From a virus (Duplodnaviria; Heunggongvirae; Uroviricota; Caudoviricetes): a DNA stretch of 11,838 nucleotides. Positions 1 to 11,838 of this stretch are shown here, piece after piece. Position 1 is the stretch's first letter. Every line of letters starts with the position of its first letter. A model generated the notes under the pieces. The model ran no database searches, was not told the DNA's origin, and saw nothing but the letters and a program-made list of their open reading frames with translations. The stretch lies in the IMG/VR virus record IMGVR_UViG_3300000059_000035, positions 1 through 11,838 of that record. One strand, written 5' to 3'. The position numbers and the translations under genes were made by a program.

Positions 1-1
1 C

Positions 2-3000
2 CTGAAAGTCGTCGATGGCATTCTGGTATCTCCGGACGATTACGAAGGTAAGGACGGGGTATTTACCGGCTATCAGCTACGAACCGTAAACGGCAAAAAC
101 GGGAATGAGTTCAAGAAGGCCAACAATAAAGACGGCTTCCTGAACCAGTTAGAAAACTACCTGAACGGTGTTAAACCGCGTGGGCAGAACGCTAACGAGT
201 ACCTGGATAAAATTGCTCAACTGGAAGTTAGTTTTAACGACTGGTTACGCACCCACCCGCAGGCGGATCAGATAGCCCGCGAGTATAACGACGCATTCAA
301 TGGCTTCATTCCGTTCACGCACTCTAACGCACCGCTTGGCCTGGAAGGGATTAGTGGAAAGCGCATTCCTCTGACTTATCAGAATGAAGAAGTTCGGCGC
401 TTGTCAGAAGATGGGCGCGGCATCATGGGATTTGGTACCGGGCTGGGTAAAACCACGACCGCGCTTGCGCTTGAGGCGTATAACTTCGAAACAGGTCGCA
501 CTAAACGCACGTGTATTGTTGTTCCGAAGGCGGTTTATCAGAACTGGTATCACGAGGCACAGAGCTTCTACAGTGCTGATGCCTTCGCAAATATGATGTT
601 TATCGGTCTGGATGAAGTTCGTGATGAAGACGGCAATATTCTGACCGCGCCGGTGCTTGATGAAAATGGCGAACCCCGCCTCGACAGTAACGGGCAGCCT
701 CTTACCAGAAATGTTGTGAAAGAGTCCGCCAGCGCCGTTATCGTTCAGCGCATGAACATGATCCCGTCGTCAAATTGGCGAACGGTCATCATGACAAAAG
801 AACAATTCGCGTCTATCCCGCTACGAGAAAAAACCATCGAGGAGAACTCACAGCAAGCTGTCTTTAATGCTGTGGAAATGGGGCGTCTTGACCTGGCGTC
901 TGGTAAACACCGTGATGCGCAGAAGAAGAACAAGATTAAGGATCAGGCCGCGGATACCGGTACAACGAAGAAGCAGAATATCCCGTACTTTGAGGATATG
1001 AACTTCGATAGCGTGATTGCCGACGAGGGGCATAACTACCGCAACTCCTTTAATGCCGGGCGTGAAGCGGGACAACTGGCATATTTGCCTAACCCGGCAG
1101 TATCCAAGATGGCCCGCGACATGGCTGTAAAAGCTGCGTACATGATGAAACGCAACAACGGGCGTGGTGTAGTCATGCTGACGGCAACACCGCTGGTGAA
1201 CAGTCCGATTGATGCCTTCAACATGCTGTCTACTGTCATTCCGCAGGAAGAGTGGATGCGCATGGGCATCATTACGCCTGATGATTTCGTTCGTGTGTTT
1301 GGTAAAACAGCCACAGTTCAGGTCCAGAAAATTTCCGGGGAAGTGGAAGAGAAGCAGGGGCTGGTTGGCTTCCAGAACCTTGATGGCCTGCGTGGTATTT
1401 TCCATCGCTGGACTACTCTGAAGACTGCTGCGGACGTCGGGGCGACGGTTAAAATCCCTGATATTGTCGAGAATACCTTGCAGATCCCGATGACAGGGGA
1501 GCAGGAGGCTGCTTATGAAGAGCTTCGTAAGCGTGCACAGGAGTTAAGTAGTAAAGATGCGCTGACGGTTGATGAAAACGGGCATATCACAAACGAAAAA
1601 CCGGATGATTTCATCTTCTCCATCATCCGCGACATGGATAAGGTTGCTATAGATCCGGATCTGTATGCCAGTGCGATTACATTCCAGTTCCCCGTTGAGC
1701 TTGCAGACAAGGTAAAAGCTATTGCTGATGCCCTGCCAAAAGTAGCTGGCGGTAAAGTGGCAGATGATGCAGACGAGGCCGAAGAAGACGGCGCTGGTGG
1801 GCTGGTTAGTACGCGCACCAGTAAGGTAGTGAAGACCACCTTTAGTGAACATCCGGCGCATGTTGAAATACGTGCCAGCATTGAACTGGAAGCTGAAATA
1901 CTGAAGGCCATTGCTGCCGCCGGGATTGATCTGCAGCAGGTATCACACCCCATCCCGCCGAAGTATGCCGCGCTGATCGAAAACCTTCGTGAAGGTCTGA
2001 AGAACGGTAAACAAATTGTCTTCATTGATGAAAAAGCCCAGCACCAGAAGCTGCGCCGTATTATCGCCAGTGCACTGCAAATGCCGGAGCAGGAGATAGG
2101 CATTATCAATGCGACGACCGTTAGCCAGGCTGGCGGCATCAAGCTGAAGAAGGTGAATAAGCCGACTGAACCTACTCCGAATAAAAACGGTGAATACAAA
2201 GAAGGGGCATGGGAAACCTACTACAGCAAACTTGCCCAATATGAGGATTATCTCTCAGCTAAAAATGATGCTGGCCTTGAGGGTATGGAAGGCATTGCCG
2301 CCGACTATAACGAAGGGCGCACGCGCATCATTATCTGTAACAAGAAGGCTGAAGTAGGTATTAACCTGCATATCGGGACAACCGATATCCACCACCTGAC
2401 ACTACCCTGGACACCAGCCAGTATCGACCAACGAAATGGGCGCGGTGCGCGCGTAGGTTCACCGCAAGAGAAGGTCAATGTTCACTACTATTGTGGCAAA
2501 GGCACATTCGACGACTTCCGTCTGGATACGCTGAAACGTAAGAAAGACTGGATCAAGATGGTGATGACCTCCGATATGTCAGAGATCGCCAATGGTGATG
2601 CGGATGATGCTGATGAACGCGCCATTATGCTGGCGGCAAACCCGGAAGAACGCCGCGCAATCATGGCTCGCCAGGCGCAAGAGCGTGAAGAACGTCTGAA
2701 ACTGAAAGCACAGCGCGAGGCCAACAATGCTCTCGATATCTACCTAAAAGCGGCAAACGCCGCCGGAAAAGATATCGGCATGATGGAGACAGAACTGAAA
2801 AGCGCGATGGAGCAGATAGAGTATTACCAGCGCAATCTTGACGACCTGATAAAAGCGGGCACGAACAGGAATGGGCAAAAATACGCGCTTGAGCAGTTGA
2901 GTAGCTACAGAAAACGTGCGCGGGTGCTGCGGTTTGCGATCACCAGGGCAAAAGACGCGGATACCATAATGAAACGCTCTCGTGGTGATGTGGAGCGCGC

Positions 3001-4735
3001 TATTAAGTCTGGTGTGCTGGATATCAGTATCGATGTTATTCAGAACCCACAGGAATATATGCGCACTGACAAGAATATCCTGTTGCATAAAGGTAGTTAT
3101 TACCGTGCAGTCATTGATGATCGCGAAACAACAGCGATTGTCCGGGTGGAAAAAATTGACGGTGAAAAAGCACAGTACATCTGCCGTATCGCCTGGCTGG
3201 ATAGAGCAAGTCGTTACGCTCGATCACCGGGGTCAATCGTTACATTGCCGTTTGACTCTGTGATTGAAGCGGTAACTTTTGAAGAGGGGGTAGCTGAATC
3301 GCGCGCAACGGCTGCGCGTGGTGTTCAGTGCCACCAGCTATCAACAATACTTACTCGCGATCAGTTCTATGATGCTATTCGCAATGGGGTAATGAATGTT
3401 ATTGCTGGTAAACCTGGTAATGCATGGGGCGGTGGGTCAGCTATTAAATACTGGGCATATCGCACAGATGATGGTCAGATCGCGCTGTCATCGGCCTATG
3501 ATGGCGTGATAGGCCAAAAAATCGGGCGAGCATCGGATATAGCACCTGAACGATGGATATATCCAGATGGCAACGATGAGGCGCTGAAGCGTGAAGTGGC
3601 AAAAATACAAGCCAGTGATAACCCGCTGAATATCGTGGACGGAGAGGGATTCCTCCAGGCATTGTATGGGTATGATTACATCCAGGGAATGCAGGCATGG
3701 GGCGCACAGGCAACGATGGATGATGTTGCCAAGGAGTTCGAAAACTGGATGGCTGGGCGTGGTCTGTCAGGTCGTTCGCTTAATAAAGTCACTTCTGAAG
3801 ATATTCTTAGCCTGTTCCGCAAACCGTCCGGAGAAGGTCTGGAATCATTCTGGAGGACCGTGCTGGCATACCGTTTATTCCAGGGCAGGATGAAAGCCTT
3901 TAGCAATATCGATGATATTGAACGGATGTTTAATCAGGTCAAGATAGCGAAAATTAAGACGAAGATCGAAAAAACACGTTCTGCGCTGGTGGCCTGGCGC
4001 GATGCATTGTTTGAGCAATATAAATCACTCAGTGATGCAGATGGATGGGCGGCACTGGAACAGTTGGCGAATAATGGGGTAGATGGAGCGAAACTCGCCA
4101 TTGTCCAGGCTGATAACCCCCTGGAATCACCGGCAGCACAGTGGATTAAGGTGGGGGCTGTCATCAATGCATTTGATGAAAAACACATTAGTAAGGACGA
4201 TTTTGCTGATGCTGTTTCTGTTAATCGCCTGGTAGAAATGGCTACCCGCCGCGCCCGTGAGTTGAAAGACGGTGACTATGTGAATGAGTTGCCGGATGCG
4301 CTCAAATCAGCAACGTGGCAAGACTATGTATCGCTGAAAAACGGCGGGGCCACCGAATCAGAGATCGCGGAAAGGCTTGAACAGGCTGAAAGCAAAAGAG
4401 AAGAGCAGGCGGCAGTGGCAGAAGCCAGAGCTGATGAAGCGGCGAATGATGACTATATCATTGTGGTTAATGATAAGCCGATTCGCGCTAAGGCGCGTGT
4501 TCGCGGGCGCTGGTGGAGCGTCAGCGAGGACGTTGGCGCGGTTTATCTCATTGCCGACCAACCAGGTTCCTCGACAATACGGAACGCCAAAGACGCGATT
4601 AAGAAGATTGGCGGGCGTTTCTGGAATTTTGAAGTGAATCCGGTCGCGGATGTGGACTTTGACCGTCCGGCGTGGATGGTATCTACGCGTTACTCGGTAG
4701 ATGAACTGCGTAAAATAATCGCCGATGCGGCTTAA
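2..4735 (+). CDS. Giant multidomain protein, 5'-truncated by the window edge (1578 codons visible); SF2 DEGH-box helicase core followed by a ~750-aa C-terminal region of unknown function
   Basis: Frame 2 is open from position 2 through the TTG at 401 where the ORF track begins (I walked every codon; no stop), ending at TAA 4733-4735. Walker A GFGTGLGKTT at 428-460, DEGH box at 1022-1033, LTATP (motif III-like) at 1178-1192, motif VI QRNGRGARVG at 2429-2458. Acidic tract DDADEAEEDG and a charged coiled-coil-like segment (ERRAIMARQAQEREERLKLK). No convincing start or RBS in-window, so the N-terminus lies upstream. Confidence 0.85.
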   Translation: MKVVDGILVSPDDYEGKDGVFTGYQLRTVNGKNGNEFKKANNKDGFLNQLENYLNGVKPRGQNANEYLDKIAQLEVSFNDWLRTHPQADQIAREYNDAFNGFIPFTHSNAPLGLEGISGKRIPLTYQNEEVRRLSEDGRGIMGFGTGLGKTTTALALEAYNFETGRTKRTCIVVPKAVYQNWYHEAQSFYSADAFANMMFIGLDEVRDEDGNILTAPVLDENGEPRLDSNGQPLTRNVVKESASAVIVQRMNMIPSSNWRTVIMTKEQFASIPLREKTIEENSQQAVFNAVEMGRLDLASGKHRDAQKKNKIKDQAADTGTTKKQNIPYFEDMNFDSVIADEGHNYRNSFNAGREAGQLAYLPNPAVSKMARDMAVKAAYMMKRNNGRGVVMLTATPLVNSPIDAFNMLSTVIPQEEWMRMGIITPDDFVRVFGKTATVQVQKISGEVEEKQGLVGFQNLDGLRGIFHRWTTLKTAADVGATVKIPDIVENTLQIPMTGEQEAAYEELRKRAQELSSKDALTVDENGHITNEKPDDFIFSIIRDMDKVAIDPDLYASAITFQFPVELADKVKAIADALPKVAGGKVADDADEAEEDGAGGLVSTRTSKVVKTTFSEHPAHVEIRASIELEAEILKAIAAAGIDLQQVSHPIPPKYAALIENLREGLKNGKQIVFIDEKAQHQKLRRIIASALQMPEQEIGIINATTVSQAGGIKLKKVNKPTEPTPNKNGEYKEGAWETYYSKLAQYEDYLSAKNDAGLEGMEGIAADYNEGRTRIIICNKKAEVGINLHIGTTDIHHLTLPWTPASIDQRNGRGARVGSPQEKVNVHYYCGKGTFDDFRLDTLKRKKDWIKMVMTSDMSEIANGDADDADERAIMLAANPEERRAIMARQAQEREERLKLKAQREANNALDIYLKAANAAGKDIGMMETELKSAMEQIEYYQRNLDDLIKAGTNRNGQKYALEQLSSYRKRARVLRFAITRAKDADTIMKRSRGDVERAIKSGVLDISIDVIQNPQEYMRTDKNILLHKGSYYRAVIDDRETTAIVRVEKIDGEKAQYICRIAWLDRASRYARSPGSIVTLPFDSVIEAVTFEEGVAESRATAARGVQCHQLSTILTRDQFYDAIRNGVMNVIAGKPGNAWGGGSAIKYWAYRTDDGQIALSSAYDGVIGQKIGRASDIAPERWIYPDGNDEALKREVAKIQASDNPLNIVDGEGFLQALYGYDYIQGMQAWGAQATMDDVAKEFENWMAGRGLSGRSLNKVTSEDILSLFRKPSGEGLESFWRTVLAYRLFQGRMKAFSNIDDIERMFNQVKIAKIKTKIEKTRSALVAWRDALFEQYKSLSDADGWAALEQLANNGVDGAKLAIVQADNPLESPAAQWIKVGAVINAFDEKHISKDDFADAVSVNRLVEMATRRARELKDGDYVNELPDALKSATWQDYVSLKNGGATESEIAERLEQAESKREEQAAVAEARADEAANDDYIIVVNDKPIRAKARVRGRWWSVSEDVGAVYLIADQPGSSTIRNAKDAIKKIGGRFWNFEVNPVADVDFDRPAWMVSTRYSVDELRKIIADAA

Positions 4736-4746
4736 CAGATAAGGAG

Positions 4747-4764
4747 CGGCCCCAGCCGGGGCCG
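4747..4764 (+). other. GC-rich hairpin (7-bp stem CGGCCCC/GGGGCCG, 4-nt loop) between an AAGGAG Shine-Dalgarno (4741-4746) and the ATG at 4772
   Basis: Perfect inverted repeat read directly; no U-tract follows, so it is not a canonical intrinsic terminator. Confidence 0.6.
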
Positions 4765-4771
4765 GATTTGA

Positions 4772-5206
4772 ATGACGACATTAATTGACACTGTAAAACC
4801 GACGGAATCCTACCTTGAGGATATTTTGCCGCAGGCGCTCAATGGCAGGAGTGAAGAGGCGTTTCTGGATGCATATCTGGATGGTATGGTGGAAAGGCTG
4901 AAACGAGATCCACAGCTTTATCACCTTTATGGCCCGTGGTGGCCTGCGCTTAAAACGTTATTGCTGGAGCGCGGCGACATATCATTTGGACAAGTTGTAG
5001 ATAGTGATGTGGCAGAGATCTACAAAATGAGTCGCCCGGCGCTTACGGTTTTAGCCGGGCATCTGTATTCAAGCGATCGCCTGGAAAATGACGCGGTATA
5101 CAATCCCGTTCATGCTCTGGAAGTCGCGCCTTATGCTGATGATACAGAGCCATATGTGTACACAAGTTACGACGAGTCGATAGAGAAATATCGAATCATG
5201 GGGTAG
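4772..5206 (+). CDS. Hypothetical acidic protein, 144 aa
   Basis: ATG ORF 36 nt downstream of the giant gene stop; about 25 D/E versus 12 K/R by my count; stop TAG 5204-5206 lies 2 nt before the next ATG. Confidence 0.6.
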   Translation: MTTLIDTVKPTESYLEDILPQALNGRSEEAFLDAYLDGMVERLKRDPQLYHLYGPWWPALKTLLLERGDISFGQVVDSDVAEIYKMSRPALTVLAGHLYSSDRLENDAVYNPVHALEVAPYADDTEPYVYTSYDESIEKYRIMG

Positions 5207-5208
5207 CT

Positions 5209-5469
5209 ATGCGAAAGAATCGTAGGTTTACGATCGACGACTTAAAAGCGTACTCACAAGGGAAGGGATACGCCCTTGAATACCACCGTTATAAGCGGGT
5301 ATTTACCCTGCGGCATATAGAAAACCCTTCGAAATGGGGATGGATTTATTTTCCGCACACTGACGATAAGCTGGTGGGCCTTGTTGATGATTTATCCTAT
5401 GAAGGATGGATGATCGCTATCGACAAGGCGGTTACAGAAATTAACGAACCGGATAAAATAAACCATTAA
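5209..5469 (+). CDS. Hypothetical protein, 86 aa
   Basis: ATG at 5209 is 2 nt after the upstream stop (TAGCTATG), suggesting translational coupling; same strand and context. No recognisable motif. Confidence 0.5.
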   Translation: MRKNRRFTIDDLKAYSQGKGYALEYHRYKRVFTLRHIENPSKWGWIYFPHTDDKLVGLVDDLSYEGWMIAIDKAVTEINEPDKINH

Positions 5470-5473
5470 AAAT

Positions 5474-5513
5474 AACAAGTTGGGTAAATGACATACAATT
5501 TACCCGGCTTGTT
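5474..5513 (+). other. Long hairpin just after the 86-aa gene (16-bp stem with two G-U pairs, 8-nt loop); possible terminator or RNA stabiliser lacking a U-tract
   Basis: AACAAGTTGGGTAAAT (5474-5489) pairs with ATTTACCCGGCTTGTT (5498-5513); core GGGTAAAT/ATTTACCC is a perfect 8-bp inverted repeat. Confidence 0.5.
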
Positions 5514-5592
5514 GACCCGCATCACCATTTACTCTAAAAACAAGTCCGACCTGTTGCATCCGCCTATCTCTTTAGTAGTATTTCCCCCGGTT

Positions 5593-5620
5593 TTGATAAA
5601 ACTAACGCTCTTGTTATTAT
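5593..5620 (+). promoter_or_regulatory. Candidate sigma70-type promoter (-35 TTGATA, 16-bp spacer, -10 TATTAT)
   Basis: TTGATA at 5593-5598 and TATTAT at 5615-5620, about 35 nt upstream of the VRR-NUC ORF start. Confidence 0.4.
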
Positions 5621-5644
5621 CGTGATCATGATTTCAGGAAGTTT

Positions 5645-5654
5645 GTGTTAGAAA
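5645..5654 (+). promoter_or_regulatory. Copy of the recurring GTGTTAGAAA motif, ending 1 nt before the TTG start at 5656
   Basis: Exact 10-mer shared with 7945-7954 and 8095-8104. Confidence 0.4.
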
Positions 5655-5655
5655 T

Positions 5656-6102
5656 TTGATTCGAAGACGCAGGCATCATAGTGCGTATTCTGAAATATCC
5701 CCGCACGCTGCTGCACTAAGAGAGTTAGAAAGAAATCCTGACTTACTAAAAAGGAATTACGAACATTACGAACAGGTTCGCGTTCTGGATTGGCTGTATC
5801 GCAACATGCGATACGTGTATGAGCACACACACTCAACACCGAACGGCGGCCTGAGAGGCAAAAGGACAGCCATTAAGATGGTGGCAGAAGGTCAGAAGAA
5901 GGGCTATCCGGACCTTTCTATTGACCTTGCTCGTGGTGGGTATCACGGAATGCGCATTGAGATGAAGCACGGGAGAAACCGTCTGACTCCCGAACAGCTC
6001 GTCTGGATGACCCGCCTCACGGAAGCAGGCTATTACTGCTTTGAGGCGCGCAGTGCCGATGAAGCCATAAAAGCTATCACGGAATATGTAAATCTTGATT
6101 AA
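5656..6102 (+). CDS. VRR-NUC domain nuclease (PD-(D/E)xK superfamily), 148 aa if the TTG start is used
   Basis: Conserved VRR-NUC-like segments read in the translation: HSTPNGG, GYPDLSI, RIEMKHG (E-x-K), TPEQLVWMTRLTEAGYYCF. Stop TAA 6100-6102. Start is uncertain: the only in-frame start codon before the conserved N-terminal region is TTG at 5656, with weak SD. Confidence 0.7.
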   Translation: MIRRRRHHSAYSEISPHAAALRELERNPDLLKRNYEHYEQVRVLDWLYRNMRYVYEHTHSTPNGGLRGKRTAIKMVAEGQKKGYPDLSIDLARGGYHGMRIEMKHGRNRLTPEQLVWMTRLTEAGYYCFEARSADEAIKAITEYVNLD

Positions 6103-6116
6103 ACGGAGAAATCGTT

Positions 6117-6317
6117 TTGCGTTTACTTAACGTGGCTGAACTTATCCCTGCCGGTGCTAACGTTGTTGCTCGTCGCTGCTCATGGCCTCATTCTTTCTGT
6201 ATAGAGCTTAAAAAGATGGATGATGGGGCATTAGAAGCCCGAAACATAGTTACCGGCGACAAGGTATGCATTACCCCGGAAAGCGCGAAAGCCAATGATT
6301 GGGAGTTTGTTCATTGA
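6117..6317 (+). CDS. Hypothetical small protein, 66 aa (TTG start)
   Basis: GGAG at 6104-6107 lies 9 nt upstream of TTG 6117; stop TGA 6315-6317. No motif recognised; short, so uncertain. Confidence 0.35.
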   Translation: MRLLNVAELIPAGANVVARRCSWPHSFCIELKKMDDGALEARNIVTGDKVCITPESAKANDWEFVH

Positions 6318-6625
6318 GCAGAAAACACCACGTAAATCTGACGTTTGCTGATGACGCCGGAAGAACCAGAAGCATAACCATGAAAGTTGCTTCCAGGAAA
6401 GTAACCGCTCCACTTATACGAGAGGCCGTAAGTGAACTTGAGATGAGTGAGAATGCAGCTCTGTTATCGGTAAGCTGGCTGGGGAAAATGACGGATCAGG
6501 AATACTCGGATGGTATACCCCACGGTGAGCGGCAGATAGTAAAGCGCGCGCTTAGAATTTCAGAGGTAGTTGTCGTACTGATAGCTTTGATTTATATGGC
6601 ATACATGCTACTTCAACACGTCTAA
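6314..6625 (+). CDS. Hypothetical small protein with a C-terminal hydrophobic (probable transmembrane) segment; start uncertain (TTG 6314 or ATG 6380)
   Basis: TTG 6314-6316 overlaps the upstream TGA (TTGA) with GGGAG at 6301-6305; alternative ATG at 6380. C-terminus ISEVVVVLIALIYMAYMLLQHV is strongly hydrophobic. Stop TAA 6623-6625. Confidence 0.4.
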   Translation: MSRKHHVNLTFADDAGRTRSITMKVASRKVTAPLIREAVSELEMSENAALLSVSWLGKMTDQEYSDGIPHGERQIVKRALRISEVVVVLIALIYMAYMLLQHV

Positions 6626-6633
6626 ACGGTCAT

Positions 6634-6660
6634 AAACCCGCCAGTTGGCGGGTTTTTTGT
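6634..6660 (+). terminator. Rho-independent terminator
   Basis: Stem CCCGCC (6637-6642) / GGCGGG (6647-6652), loop AGTT, followed by TTTTTT (6653-6658). Confidence 0.8.
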
Positions 6661-6676
6661 TGCCTGAGTCTTTTTA

Positions 6677-6713
6677 TTGAAATTGCATACTAATAAAATA
6701 TGTTAGAAAACTA
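6677..6713 (+). promoter_or_regulatory. Candidate promoter for the 402-aa gene (-35 TTGAAA, 16-bp spacer, -10 TATGTT) overlapping a TGTTAGAAAACTA motif copy
   Basis: TTGAAA 6677-6682, TATGTT 6699-6704; motif GTTAGAAAACTA at 6702-6713; the ATG at 6735 has an AGGGAA-type SD. Confidence 0.5.
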
Positions 6714-6734
6714 ATTTCAAGAAAGGGAACAAAC

Positions 6735-7943
6735 ATGAGTCAGCAAGTAGAATCATCAAGCCTGGAGATCATCTCAACCGCAATTGAAACGCTGCGGACA
6801 CAAATCGCGCTTATACAGAAACGAAATCCGGGCGATGACCTGTCAAAGCGACTGCATGAGAGCGTCATTGCCACTACAGATAACCTGGTGGCGGAAATCA
6901 ACCAGCTCCTTGATGATGGGGCAGTTGATTACAATAAGCTGGTGGATCAGTTTGAGGAATATCAGCAAGCCGTTAATGATGGCTTGATCCGTTTTTCTCA
7001 AGTCACTGGTGTATCAGCGACAGTTGAAAGCCTGGGGGATGCTGTTAATCAATTTGCCGCGAATATGCGTAATGAGATCGGCAATCTGGAGGCGCGTCTT
7101 GAGCAGGCAAATACACTGCGCAAATCTGCTGAAGTCGATTTGAGTCGTTACAAAAAAGACTATCCGCCAAGCCTGACAAAACGACTGGATGTTGCGGAGA
7201 AAGATAACCGCACGCTGAAAAGAGAGCGTCGGGAACTAAAAGAGCGTTTAACCAAGCTAAATCAGCAATGCGTTGAGTATCAAGGCGAACTCGTCACGCT
7301 GCGTAAAAAGTTAGCAGCGGCGCAGAGCATTATTGAAACATTGAAACGAGAGTGCTCAGAGCTTGGTCATGATCTGAATCGCGCCTGTGGCATGGGGCAA
7401 AGGCCAGAGACATTCCCGCTAATGTATGACGGAAGAGAAGCTATTGCCTATATCCATGAGTTTCCGCATGGTCTGGTCGCGGAGACTGGGCAACGTGGCG
7501 AAGCGTTGCTGACGGCAAATTACCATCAGCAAATCAGAACCAGCCGCCTGCTGACGATGGATGTGATCCCGTCAGTATGGGGAACGCCGCTTTACTACCG
7601 AATTCCTGGCTTCGAAACTGACTGGAATACCGACATAGACGAATGTCTGGCAGATAAAATTATGGCGTACCTTGAAACGGATTTTCCACGCTTGCATCGC
7701 CGGATTATGGACTCTAAGGATGCACCGATCGACGAATTGAAAATGCGTCCAGAGACGTTGGAGGCAATCAAGCAGACTGAGTTTGATACAGTGTTCAGTG
7801 TGGCCTGCATTCCAAGCAGCTTTCATGAAAGCATTCCGTTCATGCAGGGCGATCGACGTCAGGAAATAATTGATGCTTGCCGGGTATGGGCGAACGAGTG
7901 GGATAAGAAGAACGGTGGAGTTGAAAATCTTTACGGGAAATAA
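6735..7943 (+). CDS. Hypothetical protein, 402 aa: N-terminal ~220 aa predicted coiled coil, C-terminal ~180 aa globular domain of unknown function
   Basis: ATG with SD; long ORF; heptad-like charged segments (for example RLDVAEKDNRTLKRERRELKERLTKLNQQCVEYQGELVTLRKKLAAAQ); flanked by a terminator upstream and a palindrome downstream. No catalytic motif recognised. Confidence 0.75.
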   Translation: MSQQVESSSLEIISTAIETLRTQIALIQKRNPGDDLSKRLHESVIATTDNLVAEINQLLDDGAVDYNKLVDQFEEYQQAVNDGLIRFSQVTGVSATVESLGDAVNQFAANMRNEIGNLEARLEQANTLRKSAEVDLSRYKKDYPPSLTKRLDVAEKDNRTLKRERRELKERLTKLNQQCVEYQGELVTLRKKLAAAQSIIETLKRECSELGHDLNRACGMGQRPETFPLMYDGREAIAYIHEFPHGLVAETGQRGEALLTANYHQQIRTSRLLTMDVIPSVWGTPLYYRIPGFETDWNTDIDECLADKIMAYLETDFPRLHRRIMDSKDAPIDELKMRPETLEAIKQTEFDTVFSVACIPSSFHESIPFMQGDRRQEIIDACRVWANEWDKKNGGVENLYGK

Positions 7944-7944
7944 T

Positions 7945-7976
7945 GTGTTAGAAAACTAAAATTATCTTTCTAACAT
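7945..7976 (+). promoter_or_regulatory. Palindromic operator-like site: GTGTTAGAAA - 12 bp - TTTCTAACAT
   Basis: Arms 7945-7954 and 7967-7976 are reverse complements at 9 of 10 positions; it sits 2 nt after the stop codon of the 402-aa gene. Confidence 0.5.
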
Positions 7977-8011
7977 GTTGATTATGGGATTAACTTAACA
8001 TAGAATTTTTC

Positions 8012-8081
8012 GTGCTGGTGGGGAGCTTCCCATGTCGCTTGCGGGTTTGATAGTCACTTCATTGTCTTCCCCCACCAGCAC
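8012..8081. repeat. Long-stem inverted repeat (about 13-bp stem with one bulge, 43-nt interior), tRNA-sized (70 nt)
   Basis: GTGCTGGTGGGGA (8012-8024) pairs with TCCCCCACCAGCAC (8068-8081). Confidence 0.45.
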
Positions 8082-8094
8082 CAAACAAACTTAA

Positions 8095-8104
8095 GTGTTA
8101 GAAA
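8095..8104 (+). promoter_or_regulatory. Copy of the GTGTTAGAAA motif
   Basis: Exact 10-mer; AT-rich flanks. Confidence 0.4.
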
Positions 8105-8246
8105 GTAAATTTTAAGGTAAGGGAAAGCTCCGGCACCGTGCAAATACATGCCCGGCAGGTTTAGTGCGTAAAGTGGTTTCAGCGAGAGCATTTTACGGAG
8201 TAAACGACAGTGACTTGAGCCACGGAAGGTCTTTTTAAGGTGTTCA

Positions 8247-8274
8247 TTGATGATGATCTGGCAGTGAGTATGTT
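8247..8274 (+). promoter_or_regulatory. Candidate promoter (-35 TTGATG, 16-bp spacer, -10 TATGTT) upstream of the small ORF at 8338
   Basis: Same -10 hexamer (TATGTT) and spacer length as the 6677-6704 candidate. Confidence 0.35.
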
Positions 8275-8337
8275 AAGTGGGCCAGGCTGCATCGGGTCAT
8301 CATCAGTGCACATCCTCAACGTTAAGGAGGCGCAGAG

Positions 8338-8529
8338 TTGGGTTTTCCTCTTATTTTGCTGACTCTGAGTCTCCTTAACGTTGCGGTAATGCACCTATGC
8401 GGATGTGGCCTTGCATTGTGTTTTGAAAGAATGGGGGTAAGGCCGGGGATATCCCCAGGGGGAGGCACCCCCGCTGCAACGAACAGCCATAGACGGCAGT
8501 CGAGTGATGAAAACGTGAAAAGACTTTAA
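8338..8529 (+). CDS. Small protein (63 aa) with a hydrophobic N-terminal half; candidate membrane peptide
   Basis: Strong SD AAGGAGG at 8324-8330, 7 nt before TTG 8338; N-terminus GFPLILLTLSLLNVAVMHLCGCGLALCF is hydrophobic, C-terminus polar. Non-ATG start and short length keep confidence low. Confidence 0.35.
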   Translation: MGFPLILLTLSLLNVAVMHLCGCGLALCFERMGVRPGISPGGGTPAATNSHRRQSSDENVKRL

Positions 8530-8606
8530 ACCTCGTTACGGCTGGCGTGGCAAACGCGACAACCGGGATAGGACGGTGACGGGCGGAGAGAGAGCCGCTT
8601 CAAGAT

Positions 8607-8673
8607 AAAAGCCGACTATGGATTCCTTTCTGCGGGCCTTTGAAAGTGAATCTTGCTCAGGCAGTCGGCTTTT
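8607..8673. repeat. Long-stem inverted repeat (perfect 11-bp stem, 45-nt interior), tRNA-sized (67 nt)
   Basis: AAAAGCCGACT (8607-8617) pairs with AGTCGGCTTTT (8663-8673). Confidence 0.45.
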
Positions 8674-8803
8674 ATGTTGATACGTAGCGATAACCGCGAC
8701 AGGCGCGGCGGTAAGTATGGCGGGGTTATTCCTTCCCCGTTGAGGACACCGAGTTGCCAGGTTGACCATACGCCTAAGTGGCAATACCGCGAGTGGGATA
8801 TTT

Positions 8804-8828
8804 GCCCACCTTCGGGTGGGTGTTTTTT
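8804..8828 (+). terminator. Rho-independent terminator
   Basis: Stem CCCACC (8805-8810) / GGTGGG (8815-8820), loop TTCG, followed by TGTTTTTT. Confidence 0.8.
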
Positions 8829-9012
8829 CAGTGTTTTCGTCATGGTTAGCGACTTTGCGGCGGTTTAGAACCCGACCATTAAAGTAAATGCAAACGATGA
8901 TCTGATGATGGTAGCGGCCTAAGAAGCCTGACGCCACGGGGTATGAGTCGTCCCCCGTCAAAAAATCGACCGCAGAGTGTCCCCGTCTGTGTATTAGGGA
9001 ACGGGGAGGCAT

Positions 9013-9089
9013 AACAGGCAAGGGCGCTGGTGTGATTAACCAGATGAATGAGAAGGGGCAGGTCTTTCTGGTCAGCGCCCTTACCTGTT
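9013..9089. repeat. Long-stem inverted repeat (17-bp stem with 1 mismatch, 43-nt interior), tRNA-sized (77 nt)
   Basis: AACAGGCAAGGGCGCTG (9013-9029) pairs with CAGCGCCCTTACCTGTT (9073-9089). Confidence 0.45.
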
Positions 9090-9288
9090 GCGTCCTTCCC
9101 GCGTAACAGCCATTGGTTAATGGCTTTCTGGATAATGTCTTGTAACGGGTATATCCCGTCATGCTGAAGGCGCTAATCACGCTGGAAGCCAGGGTTATGC
9201 ATCCCCTGTTACCGAATTGCAGCCAGGGCGCGGTGCGCCGAAAAGCATACGGAGGTGGAAGCCCTCGCCGGAGACGTACCCGGCAAGT

Positions 9289-9365
9289 GATGGTGTAGCT
9301 CAGTAGGATAGAGCAGCAGCCTTCTAAGCTGTCGGTCGGTGGTTCGAATCCACCCACCATCGCCA
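9289..9365 (+). tRNA. tRNA-Arg (anticodon TCT)
   Basis: Cloverleaf read by hand: acceptor GATGGTG/CACCATC, D-arm GCTC-AGTAGGATA-GAGC, anticodon stem GCAGC/GCTGT with loop CTTCTAA, T-arm GGTGG-TTCGAAT-CCACC, discriminator G, encoded CCA. D-arm and anticodon loop resemble E. coli argU as I recall it. Confidence 0.9.
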
Positions 9366-9370
9366 ATTTA

Positions 9371-9457
9371 GGGGAGTTAGTCCGTAGGGGTAGCGGGGTA
9401 GACTGTAAATCTACTGTCATTGCGACTCGGATGGTTCGACTCCATCACTCCCCACCA
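9371..9457 (+). tRNA. tRNA-Tyr (anticodon GTA), type II with long variable arm
   Basis: Acceptor GGGGAGT/ACTCCCC, anticodon stem GTAGA/TCTAC with loop CTGTAAA, long variable arm TGTCATTGCGACTCG (similar to E. coli tyrT as I recall it), T-arm GATGG-TTCGACT-CCATC, encoded CCA. D-arm pairing is imperfect as drawn by hand. Confidence 0.8.
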
Positions 9458-9461
9458 AATT

Positions 9462-9537
9462 GCCGGTTTAGCTCAGTTGGTAGAGCAGTCGCTTTGTAAG
9501 CGAATGGCCAGCGGTTCAAGTCCGTTAACCGGCACCA
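9462..9537 (+). tRNA. tRNA-Thr (anticodon TGT)
   Basis: Acceptor GCCGGTT/AACCGGC, D-arm GCTC-AGTTGGTA-GAGC, anticodon stem GTCGC/GCGAA with loop TTTGTAA, T-arm AGCGG-TTCAAGT-CCGTT, discriminator A, encoded CCA. Confidence 0.9.
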
Positions 9538-9545
9538 ACACAACA

Positions 9546-9619
9546 GGTAAGGGTATTTTGCGACGTCGGAGATCGCCGTGCTTGGCAGAGGGTTCGAATC
9601 CCTACGAAGTACCCTTACC
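9546..9619 (+). other. tRNA-like remnant or tRNA-sized hairpin (74 nt) directly after the tRNA array; not a canonical tRNA
   Basis: Perfect 10-bp terminal stem GGTAAGGGTA (9546-9555) / TACCCTTACC (9610-9619) enclosing a T-arm-like hairpin AGGG-TTCGAAT-CCCT (9589-9603). Nine extra nt lie between the T-stem and the 3' acceptor strand, and no D-arm or anticodon arm can be drawn. Confidence 0.35.
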
Positions 9620-9767
9620 GTTGTGGTGAATGCGCAGGCTGATGCGCGAAAGACATTGCAGCTATTGCGGAAAAGAGCTGTTCGGCGGGGCAATTAAACG
9701 CCCGTGAGAGTCTGAAATAACCGCAAGCCGGAGATCAGCACCGGTCACCACAACAGCCACTGCTTTG

Positions 9768-9813
9768 GCGGTACCAGTTTGTACACTTGCTTCCGGCTGG
9801 TACCGCTCTTTTT
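9768..9813 (+). terminator. Rho-independent terminator (10-bp stem, 19-nt loop, U-tract)
   Basis: GCGGTACCAG (9768-9777) / CTGGTACCGC (9797-9806) followed by TCTTTTT (9807-9813). Confidence 0.7.
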
Positions 9814-9814
9814 A

Positions 9815-9901
9815 CAAAACAGAGAAGAGCATCACCGGACGACGGGCTCATAACCCAATCCATCCGGGCGGCNGNCACCGCAGGTGTTCTTCTCTGTTTT
9901 G
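9815..9901. repeat. Long-stem inverted repeat (16-bp stem with 1 mismatch, ~55-nt interior) in the leader upstream of the yfdP-like gene
   Basis: CAAAACAGAGAAGAGC (9815-9830) pairs with GTTCTTCTCTGTTTTG (9886-9901); interior contains two N bases (9873, 9875). Confidence 0.4.
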
Positions 9902-9950
9902 TGGAGAAACCAACCGACCTTGCAGGGTCGATATGATNAGGAGCAGCAAA

Positions 9951-10313
9951 ATGGCTAGCGAACGCAGTACTGATGTGCAGGCATTTATCGGGGAGCTGGA
10001 CGGCGGCGTATTTGAAACCAAAATCGGCGCAGTTCTCAGTGAAGTCGCTTCCGGTGTGATGAACACGAAAACCAAAGGTAAGGTCTCACTCAACCTGGAA
10101 ATCGAACCATTTGATGAGAACCGTGTGAAAATCAAACACAAACTCTCATATGTTCGCCCGACTAACCGCGGGAAAATTTCCGAAGAAGACACCACCGAAA
10201 CGCCGATGTATGTCAATCGCGGTGGTCGCCTGACTATTCTGCAGGAAGACCAGGGACAATTACTGACTCTTGCCGGTGAACCTGACGGAAAACTCCGCGC
10301 AGCAGGTCATTAA
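9951..10313 (+). CDS. yfdP: YfdP-like phage protein, 120 aa
   Basis: ATG 9951 preceded by AGGAG (9939-9943, next to an N at 9938); stop TAA 10311-10313. The 120-aa length and its position directly upstream of yfdQ/yfdR-like genes match the CPS-53 arrangement as I recall it. The longer ORF in the track (from 9765) crosses a terminator and N bases, so I reject the extension. Confidence 0.7.
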   Translation: MASERSTDVQAFIGELDGGVFETKIGAVLSEVASGVMNTKTKGKVSLNLEIEPFDENRVKIKHKLSYVRPTNRGKISEEDTTETPMYVNRGGRLTILQEDQGQLLTLAGEPDGKLRAAGH

Positions 10314-10378
10314 TATCGTTCTTAATTAACTGATTATTTATCTCATCACTGAATATCTTTATATAGTGAGGACTTATT

Positions 10379-11203
10379 ATGTCTCAGAACTTAGACGCAA
10401 CCGCAATTAATCAAATCCATGCCCTTATTTCTGCTCAGGGTGTTAATGAAATTATCAGTAAGATTGGTGCCGATGCTGTGGCATTGCCTGAGAATTTCCG
10501 CATTCATGATCTGGAAAAATTTAATTTAAATCGCTTCCGTTTCCGTGGTGCGCTTTCCACTGCCAGCATCGATGACTTTACCCGTTATTCTAAAGATCTT
10601 GCAGATGAAGGCACCCGCTGCTTTATCGATGCCGATAATATGCGTGCCGTCAGTGTGCTTAACCTGGGTACTATTGATGAACCAGGTCACGCAGATAACA
10701 CCGCCACTCTCAAACTGAAAAAGACAGCACCGTTCTCTGCNCTGTTGTCTGTTAANGGCGAGCGTAACTCCCAGAANTCACTGGCAGAATGGATTGAAGA
10801 CTGGGCCGACTACCTTGTGGGCTTTGATGCTAATGGTGACGCCATTCAGGCAACCAAAGCGGCGGCGGCTATCCGTAAAATCACAATTGAAGCGAACCAG
10901 ACCGCTGATTTTGAAGATAATGACTTCAGCGGCAAACGCTCCCTGATGGAGTCTGTCGAAGCGAAGACCAAAGACATTATGCCAGTGGCATTTGAATTTA
11001 AATGCATTCCGTTTGAAGGTCTGAAAGAACGTCCGTTTAAATTACGCCTCAGCATTATCACTGGCGATCGTCCGGTACTGGTTCTGCGCATTATTCAGCT
11101 GGAGGCGGTGCAGGAAGAAATGGCTAACGAATTTCGTGATCTGCTTGTTGAGAAATTCAAAGACAGCAAAGTAGAAACCTTTATTGGTACTTTCACCGCC
11201 TGA
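10379..11203 (+). CDS. yfdQ: YfdQ-like protein (DUF2303 family), 274 aa
   Basis: ATG with SD GAGGA at 10368-10372; 274 aa as in E. coli YfdQ; three codons contain N (10741, 10756, 10777). Stop TGA 11201-11203. Confidence 0.75.
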
Positions 11204-11215
11204 TTTCATTACTGC

Positions 11216-11237
11216 AAATGCCCCTGCGGGGGCATTT
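11216..11237 (+). terminator. Terminator-like hairpin (9-bp stem AAATGCCCC/GGGGCATTT, loop TGCG) with weak U-tract
   Basis: Perfect inverted repeat immediately after the yfdQ stop; followed by ATGG rather than a clean T-run, so it may be an attenuator or partial terminator. Confidence 0.5.
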
Positions 11238-11329
11238 ATGGAAACGTAATTACTCAATAATCGCCGGATGGTGAGGGCTTCCTTTTACCAGAATTCAGCG
11301 CGGTGCAGCGCATATACGTGGAGAACAAA

Positions 11330-11838
11330 ATGTCATTTATTAAAACTTTTTCCGGGAAGCATTTTTATTATGACAGGATAAATAAAGACGACATCGATAT
11401 TAACGATATCGCGGTTTCCCTTTCAAATATCTGTCGCTTTGCCGGTCATCTTTCGCACTTCTACAGCGTCGCCCAACATGCGGTTCTTTGCAGCCAGCTG
11501 GTGCCGCAGGAATTTGCTTTTGAAGCGTTAATGCATGATGCAACAGAAGCGTATTGCCAGGACATTCCCGCACCACTGAAACGCCTTCTTCCTGACTATA
11601 AACGGATGGAAGAAAAAATAGACGCCGTAATCCGTGAGAAATACGGGTTACCTCCTGTTATGAGCACGCCAGTGAAATATGCCGATCTCATCATGCTGGC
11701 AACCGAACGCCGCGATCTCGGGCTTGATGATGGCTCTTTCTGGCCTGTACTGGAAGGCATCCCGGCAACAGAGATGTTCAACGTGATTCCACTGGCACCG
11801 GGTCATGCCTACGGGATGTTTATGGAACGTTTTAACGA
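11330..11838 (+). CDS. yfdR: YfdR-like HD-domain phosphohydrolase (5'-deoxynucleotidase family), 3'-truncated by the window end
   Basis: ATG 11330 with GGAG 8 nt upstream; HD-domain signature residues visible (FAGHLSHF ... ALMHDATEAY); ORF still open at position 11838. Confidence 0.8.
   Translation, partial: MSFIKTFSGKHFYYDRINKDDIDINDIAVSLSNICRFAGHLSHFYSVAQHAVLCSQLVPQEFAFEALMHDATEAYCQDIPAPLKRLLPDYKRMEEKIDAVIREKYGLPPVMSTPVKYADLIMLATERRDLGLDDGSFWPVLEGIPATEMFNVIPLAPGHAYGMFMERFN

Follow-up and report, generated by a model that had tools for sequence, protein, structure and literature searches.

The window analyzed here, the whole stretch of 11,838 nucleotides (nt) that forms positions 1 to 11,838 of the IMG/VR virus record IMGVR_UViG_3300000059_000035, carries four adjoining genes that an initial annotation had described as one compact module: a giant helicase gene, a gene for an acidic protein of 144 amino acids (aa), a gene for an 86-aa protein coupled to it and a gene for a VRR-NUC nuclease. 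Our analysis confirms that the four genes are real and indicates, with a probability of roughly 0.8, that they correspond to three known and separate functions of P1/D6-like phage-plasmids that adjoin one another: (i) darB and ulx, two components of the virion-packaged Dar anti-restriction system; (ii) a diverged member of the family of lxc, the P1 gene for a co-repressor of the C1 repressor; (iii) pmgM, a stand-alone nuclease gene. They are not one module, and no new anti-defence module is present: darB–ulx next to the pmgM nuclease gene is the known P1 Dar pair, already annotated in Escherichia phage D6. What is new is a conserved hairpin in front of ulx and a likely family and function for the 86-aa protein, which D6-like phage-plasmids conserve as a "hypothetical" protein; such elements are common in E. 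coli, Salmonella and Enterobacter. The layout given in the initial annotation (giant open reading frame (ORF), 36 nt, 144 aa, 2 nt, 86 aa, 186 nt, nuclease) was found in full in the sequence:

2–4735, plus strand: 3′ part (1578 codons) of a darB homologue, with the SNF2-type helicase region and the C-terminal region; the gene extends beyond the left edge of the window
4743–4771, plus strand: ribosome-binding region of ulx, with GGAG at 4743–4746, a stem-loop and a 7-nt tail, followed by the ATG at 4772
4772–5206, plus strand: ulx homologue (144 aa), Dar component; ATG 36 nt after the darB stop
5209–5469, plus strand: lxc-like gene (86 aa), 2 nt from ulx; putative co-repressor of a D6-type C1
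5474–5513, plus strand: stem-loop right after the stop of the lxc-like gene, with arms at 5474–5489 and 5498–5513; no U-run
5593–5620, plus strand: candidate sigma-70-like promoter, TTGATA-16-TATTAT with an upstream TG, 10/12 matches
5656–6102, plus strand: pmgM homologue, a stand-alone VRR-NUC (PD-(D/E)xK) gene of 148 codons with a TTG start; Pfam PF08774

DNA comparison assigns the window to a P1/D6-like phage-plasmid. It is 84.5% identical to D6 (NC_050154), and its identity to a set of non-mobilisable plasmids of ~90 kb from E. coli and E. marmotae is about 98%. Gene order and gene sizes are the same in the window and in D6, where the corresponding genes are annotated as orf15 ("similar to P1 darB"), orf14 ("similar to P1 ulx"), orf13 (hypothetical) and orf12 ("similar to P1 pmgM"); the identical order extends downstream of orf12 to orf11 and then to genes resembling pmgR and pmgS. 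Comparison with D6 shows purifying selection on each of the three small genes: the ratio of nonsynonymous to synonymous divergence (dN/dS) is 0.02 in ulx, 0.22 in the 86-aa gene and 0.03 in the VRR-NUC gene. None of the three small proteins (144, 86 and 148 aa) matched an entry of NCBIfam or PADLOC.

The darB–ulx pair and its junction

The giant reading frame is open from base 2 and reaches its stop at 4735. Its product aligns with residues 844–1924 of P1 DarB with 44% identity over 1143 aa, and the last ~140 residues of both proteins also match, although weakly (26% identity, E 0.038). It contains the Pfam domains SNF2-rel_dom, Helicase_C and ResIII and shares 98% of its residues with the product of D6 orf15. 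A full-length relative, 99.7% identical, is found in the plasmid pEC361_3; it comprises 2278 aa with SNF2 helicase domains, and its N-terminus displays a weak N6-methylase signal, N6_Mtase and Eco57I lying slightly under the Pfam cut-offs (19.9 versus 20.4 bits). Taken at the level of protein alignment, the giant gene is a darB homologue. The 144-aa protein shares 46% of its residues with P1 Ulx (BLASTP, E 1e-44), covers the whole profile of phrog_1629 ("Ulx-like anti-restriction", E 2.3e-59) and is 99.3% identical to the D6 orf14 product. Homologues, often named "olxA", occur on 80–110-kb contigs of Escherichia, Klebsiella, Raoultella, Enterobacter, Atlantibacter, Hafnia and Yersinia; in P1, Ulx and DarB are gp010 and gp011, and in P7 Ulx is called OlxA. 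These similarities identify the 144-aa protein as the Ulx of the known virion-packaged Dar system, as already annotated in D6. In both P1 and the window, darB is followed by ulx at a distance of about 35 nt; the other P1 Dar components (darA, hdf, ddrA, ddrB) would fall outside the 11.8-kb window. The anti-restriction flavour that the initial annotation gave to the region is thus retained for the giant helicase and the acidic protein and lost for the 86-aa and VRR-NUC genes.

What these proteins do is documented in P1. In PMC9024508, Ulx is presented as a head protein found in the head proteome that "aids DarB localization"; PMC12810830 counts it among six Dar proteins that are incorporated in a set order, and PMC10695390 states that ulx "enhances incorporation of darB" and is non-essential. 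By homology with P1, a 2278-aa methyltransferase/helicase DarB would thus be built into the phage head together with Ulx, which would be needed for DarB incorporation, and both would be injected with the DNA and would shield this same DNA, in cis, against type I restriction (EcoB/EcoK).

It had also been suggested that the acidic protein could be a DNA mimic. Its composition is as had been described: it contains 25 Asp and Glu versus 12 Lys and Arg residues, giving a net charge of −13 and an isoelectric point (pI) of 4.43, and the net charge of its D6-like relatives ranges from −6 to −16. However, P1 Ulx is barely acidic, with 24 acidic and 20 basic residues, a net charge of −4 and a pI of 5.27, so that a strong negative charge is a trait of the D6-like branch and not of Ulx proteins in general. 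An AlphaFold2 model of the 144-aa protein (mean predicted local distance difference test score, pLDDT, 89; predicted template modelling score, pTM, 0.85) shows a five-helix bundle with a small β-hairpin. The protein displayed no sequence or fold resemblance to a known DNA mimic, its model matched no known fold, and a profile search of PDB sequences with the Ulx alignment gave no match. Of the profile and structure analyses that had been put forward as a check on the small proteins, the profile searches place the 144-aa protein in the anti-restriction family Ulx and bring the 86-aa protein to the Lxc family (see below), and the structure model does not lend the 144-aa protein the fold of a mimic. 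DNA mimics are soluble decoys with an effect in trans. The protection given by Dar is confined to the DNA packaged with it, so that it acts in cis (PMC12707154), which makes Ulx unlike such a decoy. DNA mimicry is therefore not supported. Ulx of the window does share with Ocr and ArdA a small size, acidity, a phage or plasmid origin and a connection with type I restriction; it differs from them in that acidity is not family-wide and in that Dar exerts its effect in cis, from within the virion.

The junction between darB and ulx has a conserved architecture, which P1 and the window have in common. In the window, GGAG is directly followed by a stem-loop with a GC stem of 7 bp (4747–4753 paired with 4758–4764) and an AGCC loop, and the centroid fold of the leader has an energy of −16.3 kcal/mol. 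We compared this junction in 19 P1-like loci, namely the window and loci L001, L003, L005, L008, L009 and L011–L023 of our collection, by folding each sequence separately and counting pairs anchored on the stem. All 19 contain GGAG, directly 3′ of it a GC-rich hairpin of 6–8 bp and then 5–10 nt (14 in one locus) to the AUG. The stems have 15 distinct sequences, with compensatory C-G/G-C swaps. RNAalifold on a MAFFT alignment of the ulx leaders found no structure, this alignment being out of register. The linear distance from GGAG to AUG is 22–30 nt, which exceeds the spacing of a normal ribosome-binding site; folding of the stem brings it into the normal range. Altogether, the conserved GC hairpin probably brings GGAG close to the ulx AUG, and GGAG would then be used for ulx translation. 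Split ribosome-binding sites have been described for T4 genes 38 and 25, and the ulx leader is similar to these. The hairpin may be part of such a split site or, alternatively, an mRNA stabiliser at the 3′ end of the darB message. The GGAG–hairpin–AUG element upstream of ulx is conserved and could be tested as a translational device.

The gene following ulx and the Lxc family

The boundary between ulx and the 86-aa gene is a point of abrupt change between the window and D6. Nucleotide identity is 97% in darB and ulx, with a synonymous divergence (dS) of 0.10–0.15, and falls to 77.5% in the 86-aa gene (dS 0.80) and 83% in the VRR-NUC gene (dS 1.34); from the 86-aa gene onwards, identity is 73–90% and dS 0.5–1.3. 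This drop places a recombination (mosaic) breakpoint exactly at the boundary (5206/5209); darB–ulx moves as a unit without the 86-aa and VRR-NUC genes.

The 86-aa protein (pI 8.0) is 73% identical to the product of D6 orf13, labeled merely hypothetical, and belongs to phrog_6844, a family whose function is given as unknown. In P1 and P7, the same slot is occupied by lxc (82 aa in P1), which overlaps the ulx stop and whose product belongs to a separate family, phrog_2160. We fetched 14 additional loci with Ulx, whose sources were Pantoea, Enterobacter, Citrobacter, Xenorhabdus, Serratia, Erwinia, an unclassified Enterobacteriaceae bacterium and, as an outlier, a Brachymonas contig, and two more loci besides. 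In every P1-like locus, an ORF of 82–95 aa lies directly 3′ of ulx, and in nearly all it is coupled to ulx: the gap is 2 nt in the window and elsewhere lies between −8 and +9 nt, apart from one locus with +36 nt. Close relatives of the 86-aa protein are few: five clusters in a 90% database and about nine in a profile search of 1.84 billion proteins.

Starting from the 86-aa protein of the window, we ran an iterative hidden Markov model (HMM) search against all 2547 six-frame ORFs of the collected loci. The first iteration recruited the Serratia/Erwinia forms and the second the Lxc proteins of JK004 (E 3.6e-6) and P1 (E 1.4e-5). All the matches were ORFs located directly downstream of ulx, and no other ORF appeared at E ≤10 in any iteration. 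Comparison of the 86-aa family with a clean set of Lxc proteins using hhalign gave a probability of 80% (P 1.4e-5, 66 columns), and of 94% (P 1.2e-7) when the Serratia/Erwinia intermediates were added; the intermediates themselves aligned with the 86-aa family at 97.9%. The corresponding scores, 31 and 41, lie 10–15 standard deviations above those of 200 column shuffles (10 ± 2, maximum 17). The joint 86-aa/Lxc alignment is nearly full-length and poor in gaps, with G20, W43 and W67 each retained in 90% or more of the rows, whereas the identity between the 86-aa protein and P1 Lxc is about 14–18% (14% in the joint alignment). Thus, the 86-aa protein is most likely the D6-type homologue of Lxc, the relationship being a remote one. 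P1 Lxc and the 86-aa protein are alike in their slot after ulx, their coupled start, their size (82 versus 86 aa) and their homology at the profile level; they differ in their PHROG family, in the lack of a pairwise signal and in their partner repressors, which are only 21% identical.

In P1, Lxc is a co-repressor that strengthens the binding of C1 to its operators (as cited in PMC8546580). The window does not extend to the C1 gene itself, which D6 (orf1) and pEC361_3 both carry; the 86-aa protein of pEC361_3 is the same as that of the window. D6 C1 has 21% identity with P1 C1 and is thus as remote from its counterpart as the 86-aa protein is from Lxc. By analogy with P1 Lxc, the 86-aa protein, coupled to the ulx stop, would bind the C1-type repressor of the element on operator DNA and strengthen repression, and we hold such a co-repressor activity to be somewhat better than an even bet. 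The gene would then be a modulator of immunity and not an anti-restriction component. Note that P1 carries lxc promoters inside ulx, whereas none was detected in the window at the threshold of our scan.

A different function can be considered, in which the 86-aa protein is a further Dar accessory, such as a partner or chaperone of Ulx or DarB, and its likeness to Lxc reflects ancestry only or goes with a second, Dar-linked role. The persistence of a family ORF behind ulx in Escherichia, Enterobacter, Pantoea, Citrobacter, Xenorhabdus, Serratia and Erwinia, despite the strong divergence of the repressors, speaks for such a role, and a protein with 14% identity to P1 Lxc has room for a changed function. 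However, the biochemical role of P1 Lxc with C1 is a defined one (cited in PMC8546580), and P1 Lxc is not among the six known Dar proteins (PMC12810830, PMC12707154), the word "Lxc" being absent from the main text of the paper on the P1 virion proteome (PMC9024508); furthermore, the mosaic breakpoint parts ulx from the 86-aa gene. We therefore regard a Dar accessory as rather improbable.

Slightly less probable still is that the 86-aa ORF is unrelated to Lxc, having replaced it in the same slot, and that the profile link is an artefact of iterating over ORFs that share a position. Several results weigh against the homology between the 86-aa protein and Lxc or against a link with a repressor: (i) pairwise BLAST between the 86-aa protein and P1 Lxc detects no similarity (E 5.6), in line with their separate PHROG families (6844 and 2160); (ii) the reverse search, started from Lxc, gives E-values of 0.002–0.007, just above the threshold, and does not pass 1e-3; (iii) the Lxc group taken by itself has very low diversity (effective number of sequences 1.8); (iv) structure searches with a model of the 86-aa protein returned nothing, not even P1 Lxc or the D6 orf13 product from BFVD; (v) P1-type C1 operators (ATTGCTCTAATAAATTT, at most 4 mismatches) were found neither in the window nor in the D6 locus in a scan that recovered the known P1 sites. 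The model used in (iv) was built from a 12-sequence alignment and shows a small α–β3–α fold (pLDDT 86) with no solved relative; a profile search of PDB sequences with the Lxc-like alignment gave no match. Because of point (v), the link with a repressor is one of homology. Against a replacement by an unrelated gene stand the margin of the hhalign scores over the column-shuffled controls, the absence of any ORF from outside the post-ulx slot among the 2547 searched, the gap-poor alignment with its three conserved residues and the behavior of the intermediates, which tie strongly to the 86-aa family and are the sole hits below 0.01 in the search started from P1 Lxc, all the matches of which again lie directly downstream of ulx. 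A motif conserved in the spacer behind the gene, CATTTACTCTAAAAAC, was considered as a possible operator and set aside, as the window contains only one copy.

If the 86-aa protein is indeed a D6-type Lxc, a broader scheme can be imagined, which we put forward as tentative and on balance doubtful. Lxc-family co-repressor genes would be universal and fast-evolving companions of ulx in all P1-like phage-plasmids; D6 orf13 and PHROG 6844 would represent a D6-type branch that co-diverges with C1 and contributes to immunity specificity, and co-repressor expression would be hard-wired to the darB–ulx transcript. Were this true, a split ribosome-binding site and stop–start coupling would place anti-restriction and the set-point of the lysis–lysogeny decision on one message.

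The pmgM gene, its transcription unit and its position

The product of the VRR-NUC gene matches the Pfam VRR_NUC family with 26.2 bits (cut-off 23.8), is 56% identical to P1 PmgM and is similar to psNUC (PDB code: 4QBL; E 1.1e-16). The sequence and its alignment with psNUC show that E36, P85-D86, E102-M-K104 and Q114 are present, E36 being inferred to be the catalytic glutamate; the two proteins thus have in common a single-domain size and the E…PD…ExK…Q signature. psNUC is a dimeric Holliday-junction resolvase, and cleavage of four-way junctions was shown for psNUC, stNUC and saNUC (PMC4103454). By analogy, the window protein is most likely a dimeric resolvase of Holliday junctions or branched DNA, which would resolve replication and recombination intermediates. 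Compared to P1 PmgM, it has a shorter N-terminus (148 versus 192 aa) and starts at a weak TTG.

The start of this gene is assigned differently among close relatives. It is the TTG at 5656 in the window, an ATG one codon later in pEC361_3, where the window reads ATT, and a TTG 16 codons further upstream according to the authors of the D6 sequence. In the RefSeq annotation of pEC361_3 (98% identical; positions 9279–9503 of locus L006), only the last 74 codons are called and the N-terminal helix containing E36 is omitted. Automatic annotation thus shrinks the VRR-NUC gene to a 74-aa fragment devoid of part of the active site.

The 186-nt spacer upstream of pmgM had been described as carrying a hairpin and a promoter-like site. 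The hairpin is real and strong: its 16-nt arms are 88% complementary, its folding energy is −22.4 kcal/mol with a z-score of −6.2, and none of 200 shuffled sequences folded as well. It is conserved in D6; at the corresponding place, L008 carries another inverted repeat. This stem-loop is a probable end or stabiliser of the darB–ulx–lxc-like transcript. The promoter-like site is present at 5593–5620, but such sites are no commoner in the region than in shuffled sequence (four found versus 4.0 expected by chance), so that the site alone is no evidence for a promoter; in D6, the −10 hexamer is identical and the −35 hexamer is TTTACA, and neither L008 nor L009 conserves the site. The spacer (5470–5655) contains no copy of the −22 box of P1 late promoters (AAGTGACTW, at most one mismatch). 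Exact copies of this box are found at 3786–3794 and 8051–8059 on the minus strand, their total count not exceeding that expected by chance.

Downstream, pmgM is followed by two small ORFs and a terminator:

6117–6317, plus strand: 66-aa ORF; phrog_7206, homologue of D6 orf11
6299–6625, plus strand: pmgR-like ORF; phrog_9115, homologue of D6 orf10 ("similar to P1 pmgR")
6634–6664, plus strand: canonical intrinsic terminator with a 9-bp GC-rich stem (AAACCCGCCAGTTGGCGGGTTT) followed by a T-run (TTTGTTGCCT)

The spacer hairpin and the terminator at 6634 bracket the VRR-NUC, 66-aa and pmgR-like genes. The VRR-NUC gene, pmgM, thus belongs to a separate transcription unit, which would start after the stem-loop and the promoter-like site and end at the terminator.

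As regards position, pmgM adjoins darB–ulx–lxc-like in the window and forms part of the pmgL–pmgS operon in P1. The initial annotation had suggested examining co-occurrence and had noted that helicase–nuclease pairings recur in phage DNA-processing and anti-defence modules, without asserting that these genes act together. The order DarB–Ulx–Lxc-like–PmgM, with 0.2–1.3 kb before PmgM, does recur in 14 of the 19 P1-like loci, an observation that weighs against separate functions and would fit a functional tie. However, PmgM is 3–9 kb away in four of the 19 loci and distant in P1, where pmgM (at 78.9 kb, on the opposite strand) and ulx (at 10 kb) are 25 kb apart round the circle. Moreover, the elements are related and share their whole gene order, so the adjacency is not independent evidence for a joint function. 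It is conserved synteny, rearranged in P1 and P7, and what had looked like a pairing is gene order maintained among related phages. Homologues of the VRR-NUC protein are found in 409 phage records, mostly of phages unrelated to P1 (e.g. Salinibacter and Vibrio phages). In P1, a pmgM deletion mutant is viable and displays "normal restriction" on EcoA, EcoB and EcoK (PMC9024508, Suppl. Table S3), and a CRISPR interference screen classified pmgM as non-essential (PMC10695390). One anti-defence module of all four genes, in which the 144-aa protein would titrate restriction enzymes as a DNA mimic while helicase and VRR-NUC protein cooperate, can thus draw on the acidity of the window protein and its D6-like relatives and on the gene order kept within ~1.3 kb in the 14 loci, but is very improbable in view of the low charge of the characterized P1 Ulx, the cis-only action of Dar, the part ascribed to Ulx in the head (PMC9024508), the normal restriction evasion of the P1 mutant, the remote site of P1 pmgM, the spread of VRR-NUC homologues among unrelated phages, the mosaic breakpoint between ulx and the next gene and the assignment of that gene to immunity regulation.

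Downstream region and related elements

The terminator is followed by one further gene of the shared order:

6735–7943, plus strand: pmgS homologue (402 aa), head morphogenesis; phrog_1660, E 3.8e-143; 94% identity to D6 orf9

The next 1.3 kb (7944–9288), between pmgS and a tRNA cluster, contain no convincing ORF, are 96–98% conserved in related plasmids and have nothing annotated there. An Rfam scan of this interval found no family at threshold; a tmRNA_permuted hit at 8780–8922, with 24 bits for a gathering score of 47, was rejected as a chance match. A 294-aa ORF on the minus strand (8536–9420) looks like an antisense-tRNA artefact.

The cluster itself (9289–9537, plus strand) consists of three tRNA genes, Arg(TCT), Tyr(GTA) and Thr(TGT). 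At the corresponding place, D6 has Asn, Thr and Ser tRNA genes on the opposite strand; the tRNA cargo therefore differs between close relatives. The megablast match of the window to pEC361_3 ends at about 9755, and the window departs from the plasmid beyond this point. Six single N bases (9873, 9875, 9938, 10741, 10756 and 10777) interrupt two ORFs 3′ of the tRNA genes, one encoding a PHROG 204 protein and the other, at 10379–11203, a DUF2303/PHROG 210 protein.

Finally, D6-like plasmids of Enterobacter and E. coli encode a 191-aa protein a few kilobases downstream (positions 14246–14821 in L009, 14247–14822 in L010 and 14453–15028 in L006). RefSeq names the L006 copy "MW1434 family type I TA system toxin", and the copies of L009 and L010 match the Pfam family Tad2-like (PF11195). 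The window lacks this gene, which may have an anti-defence function.

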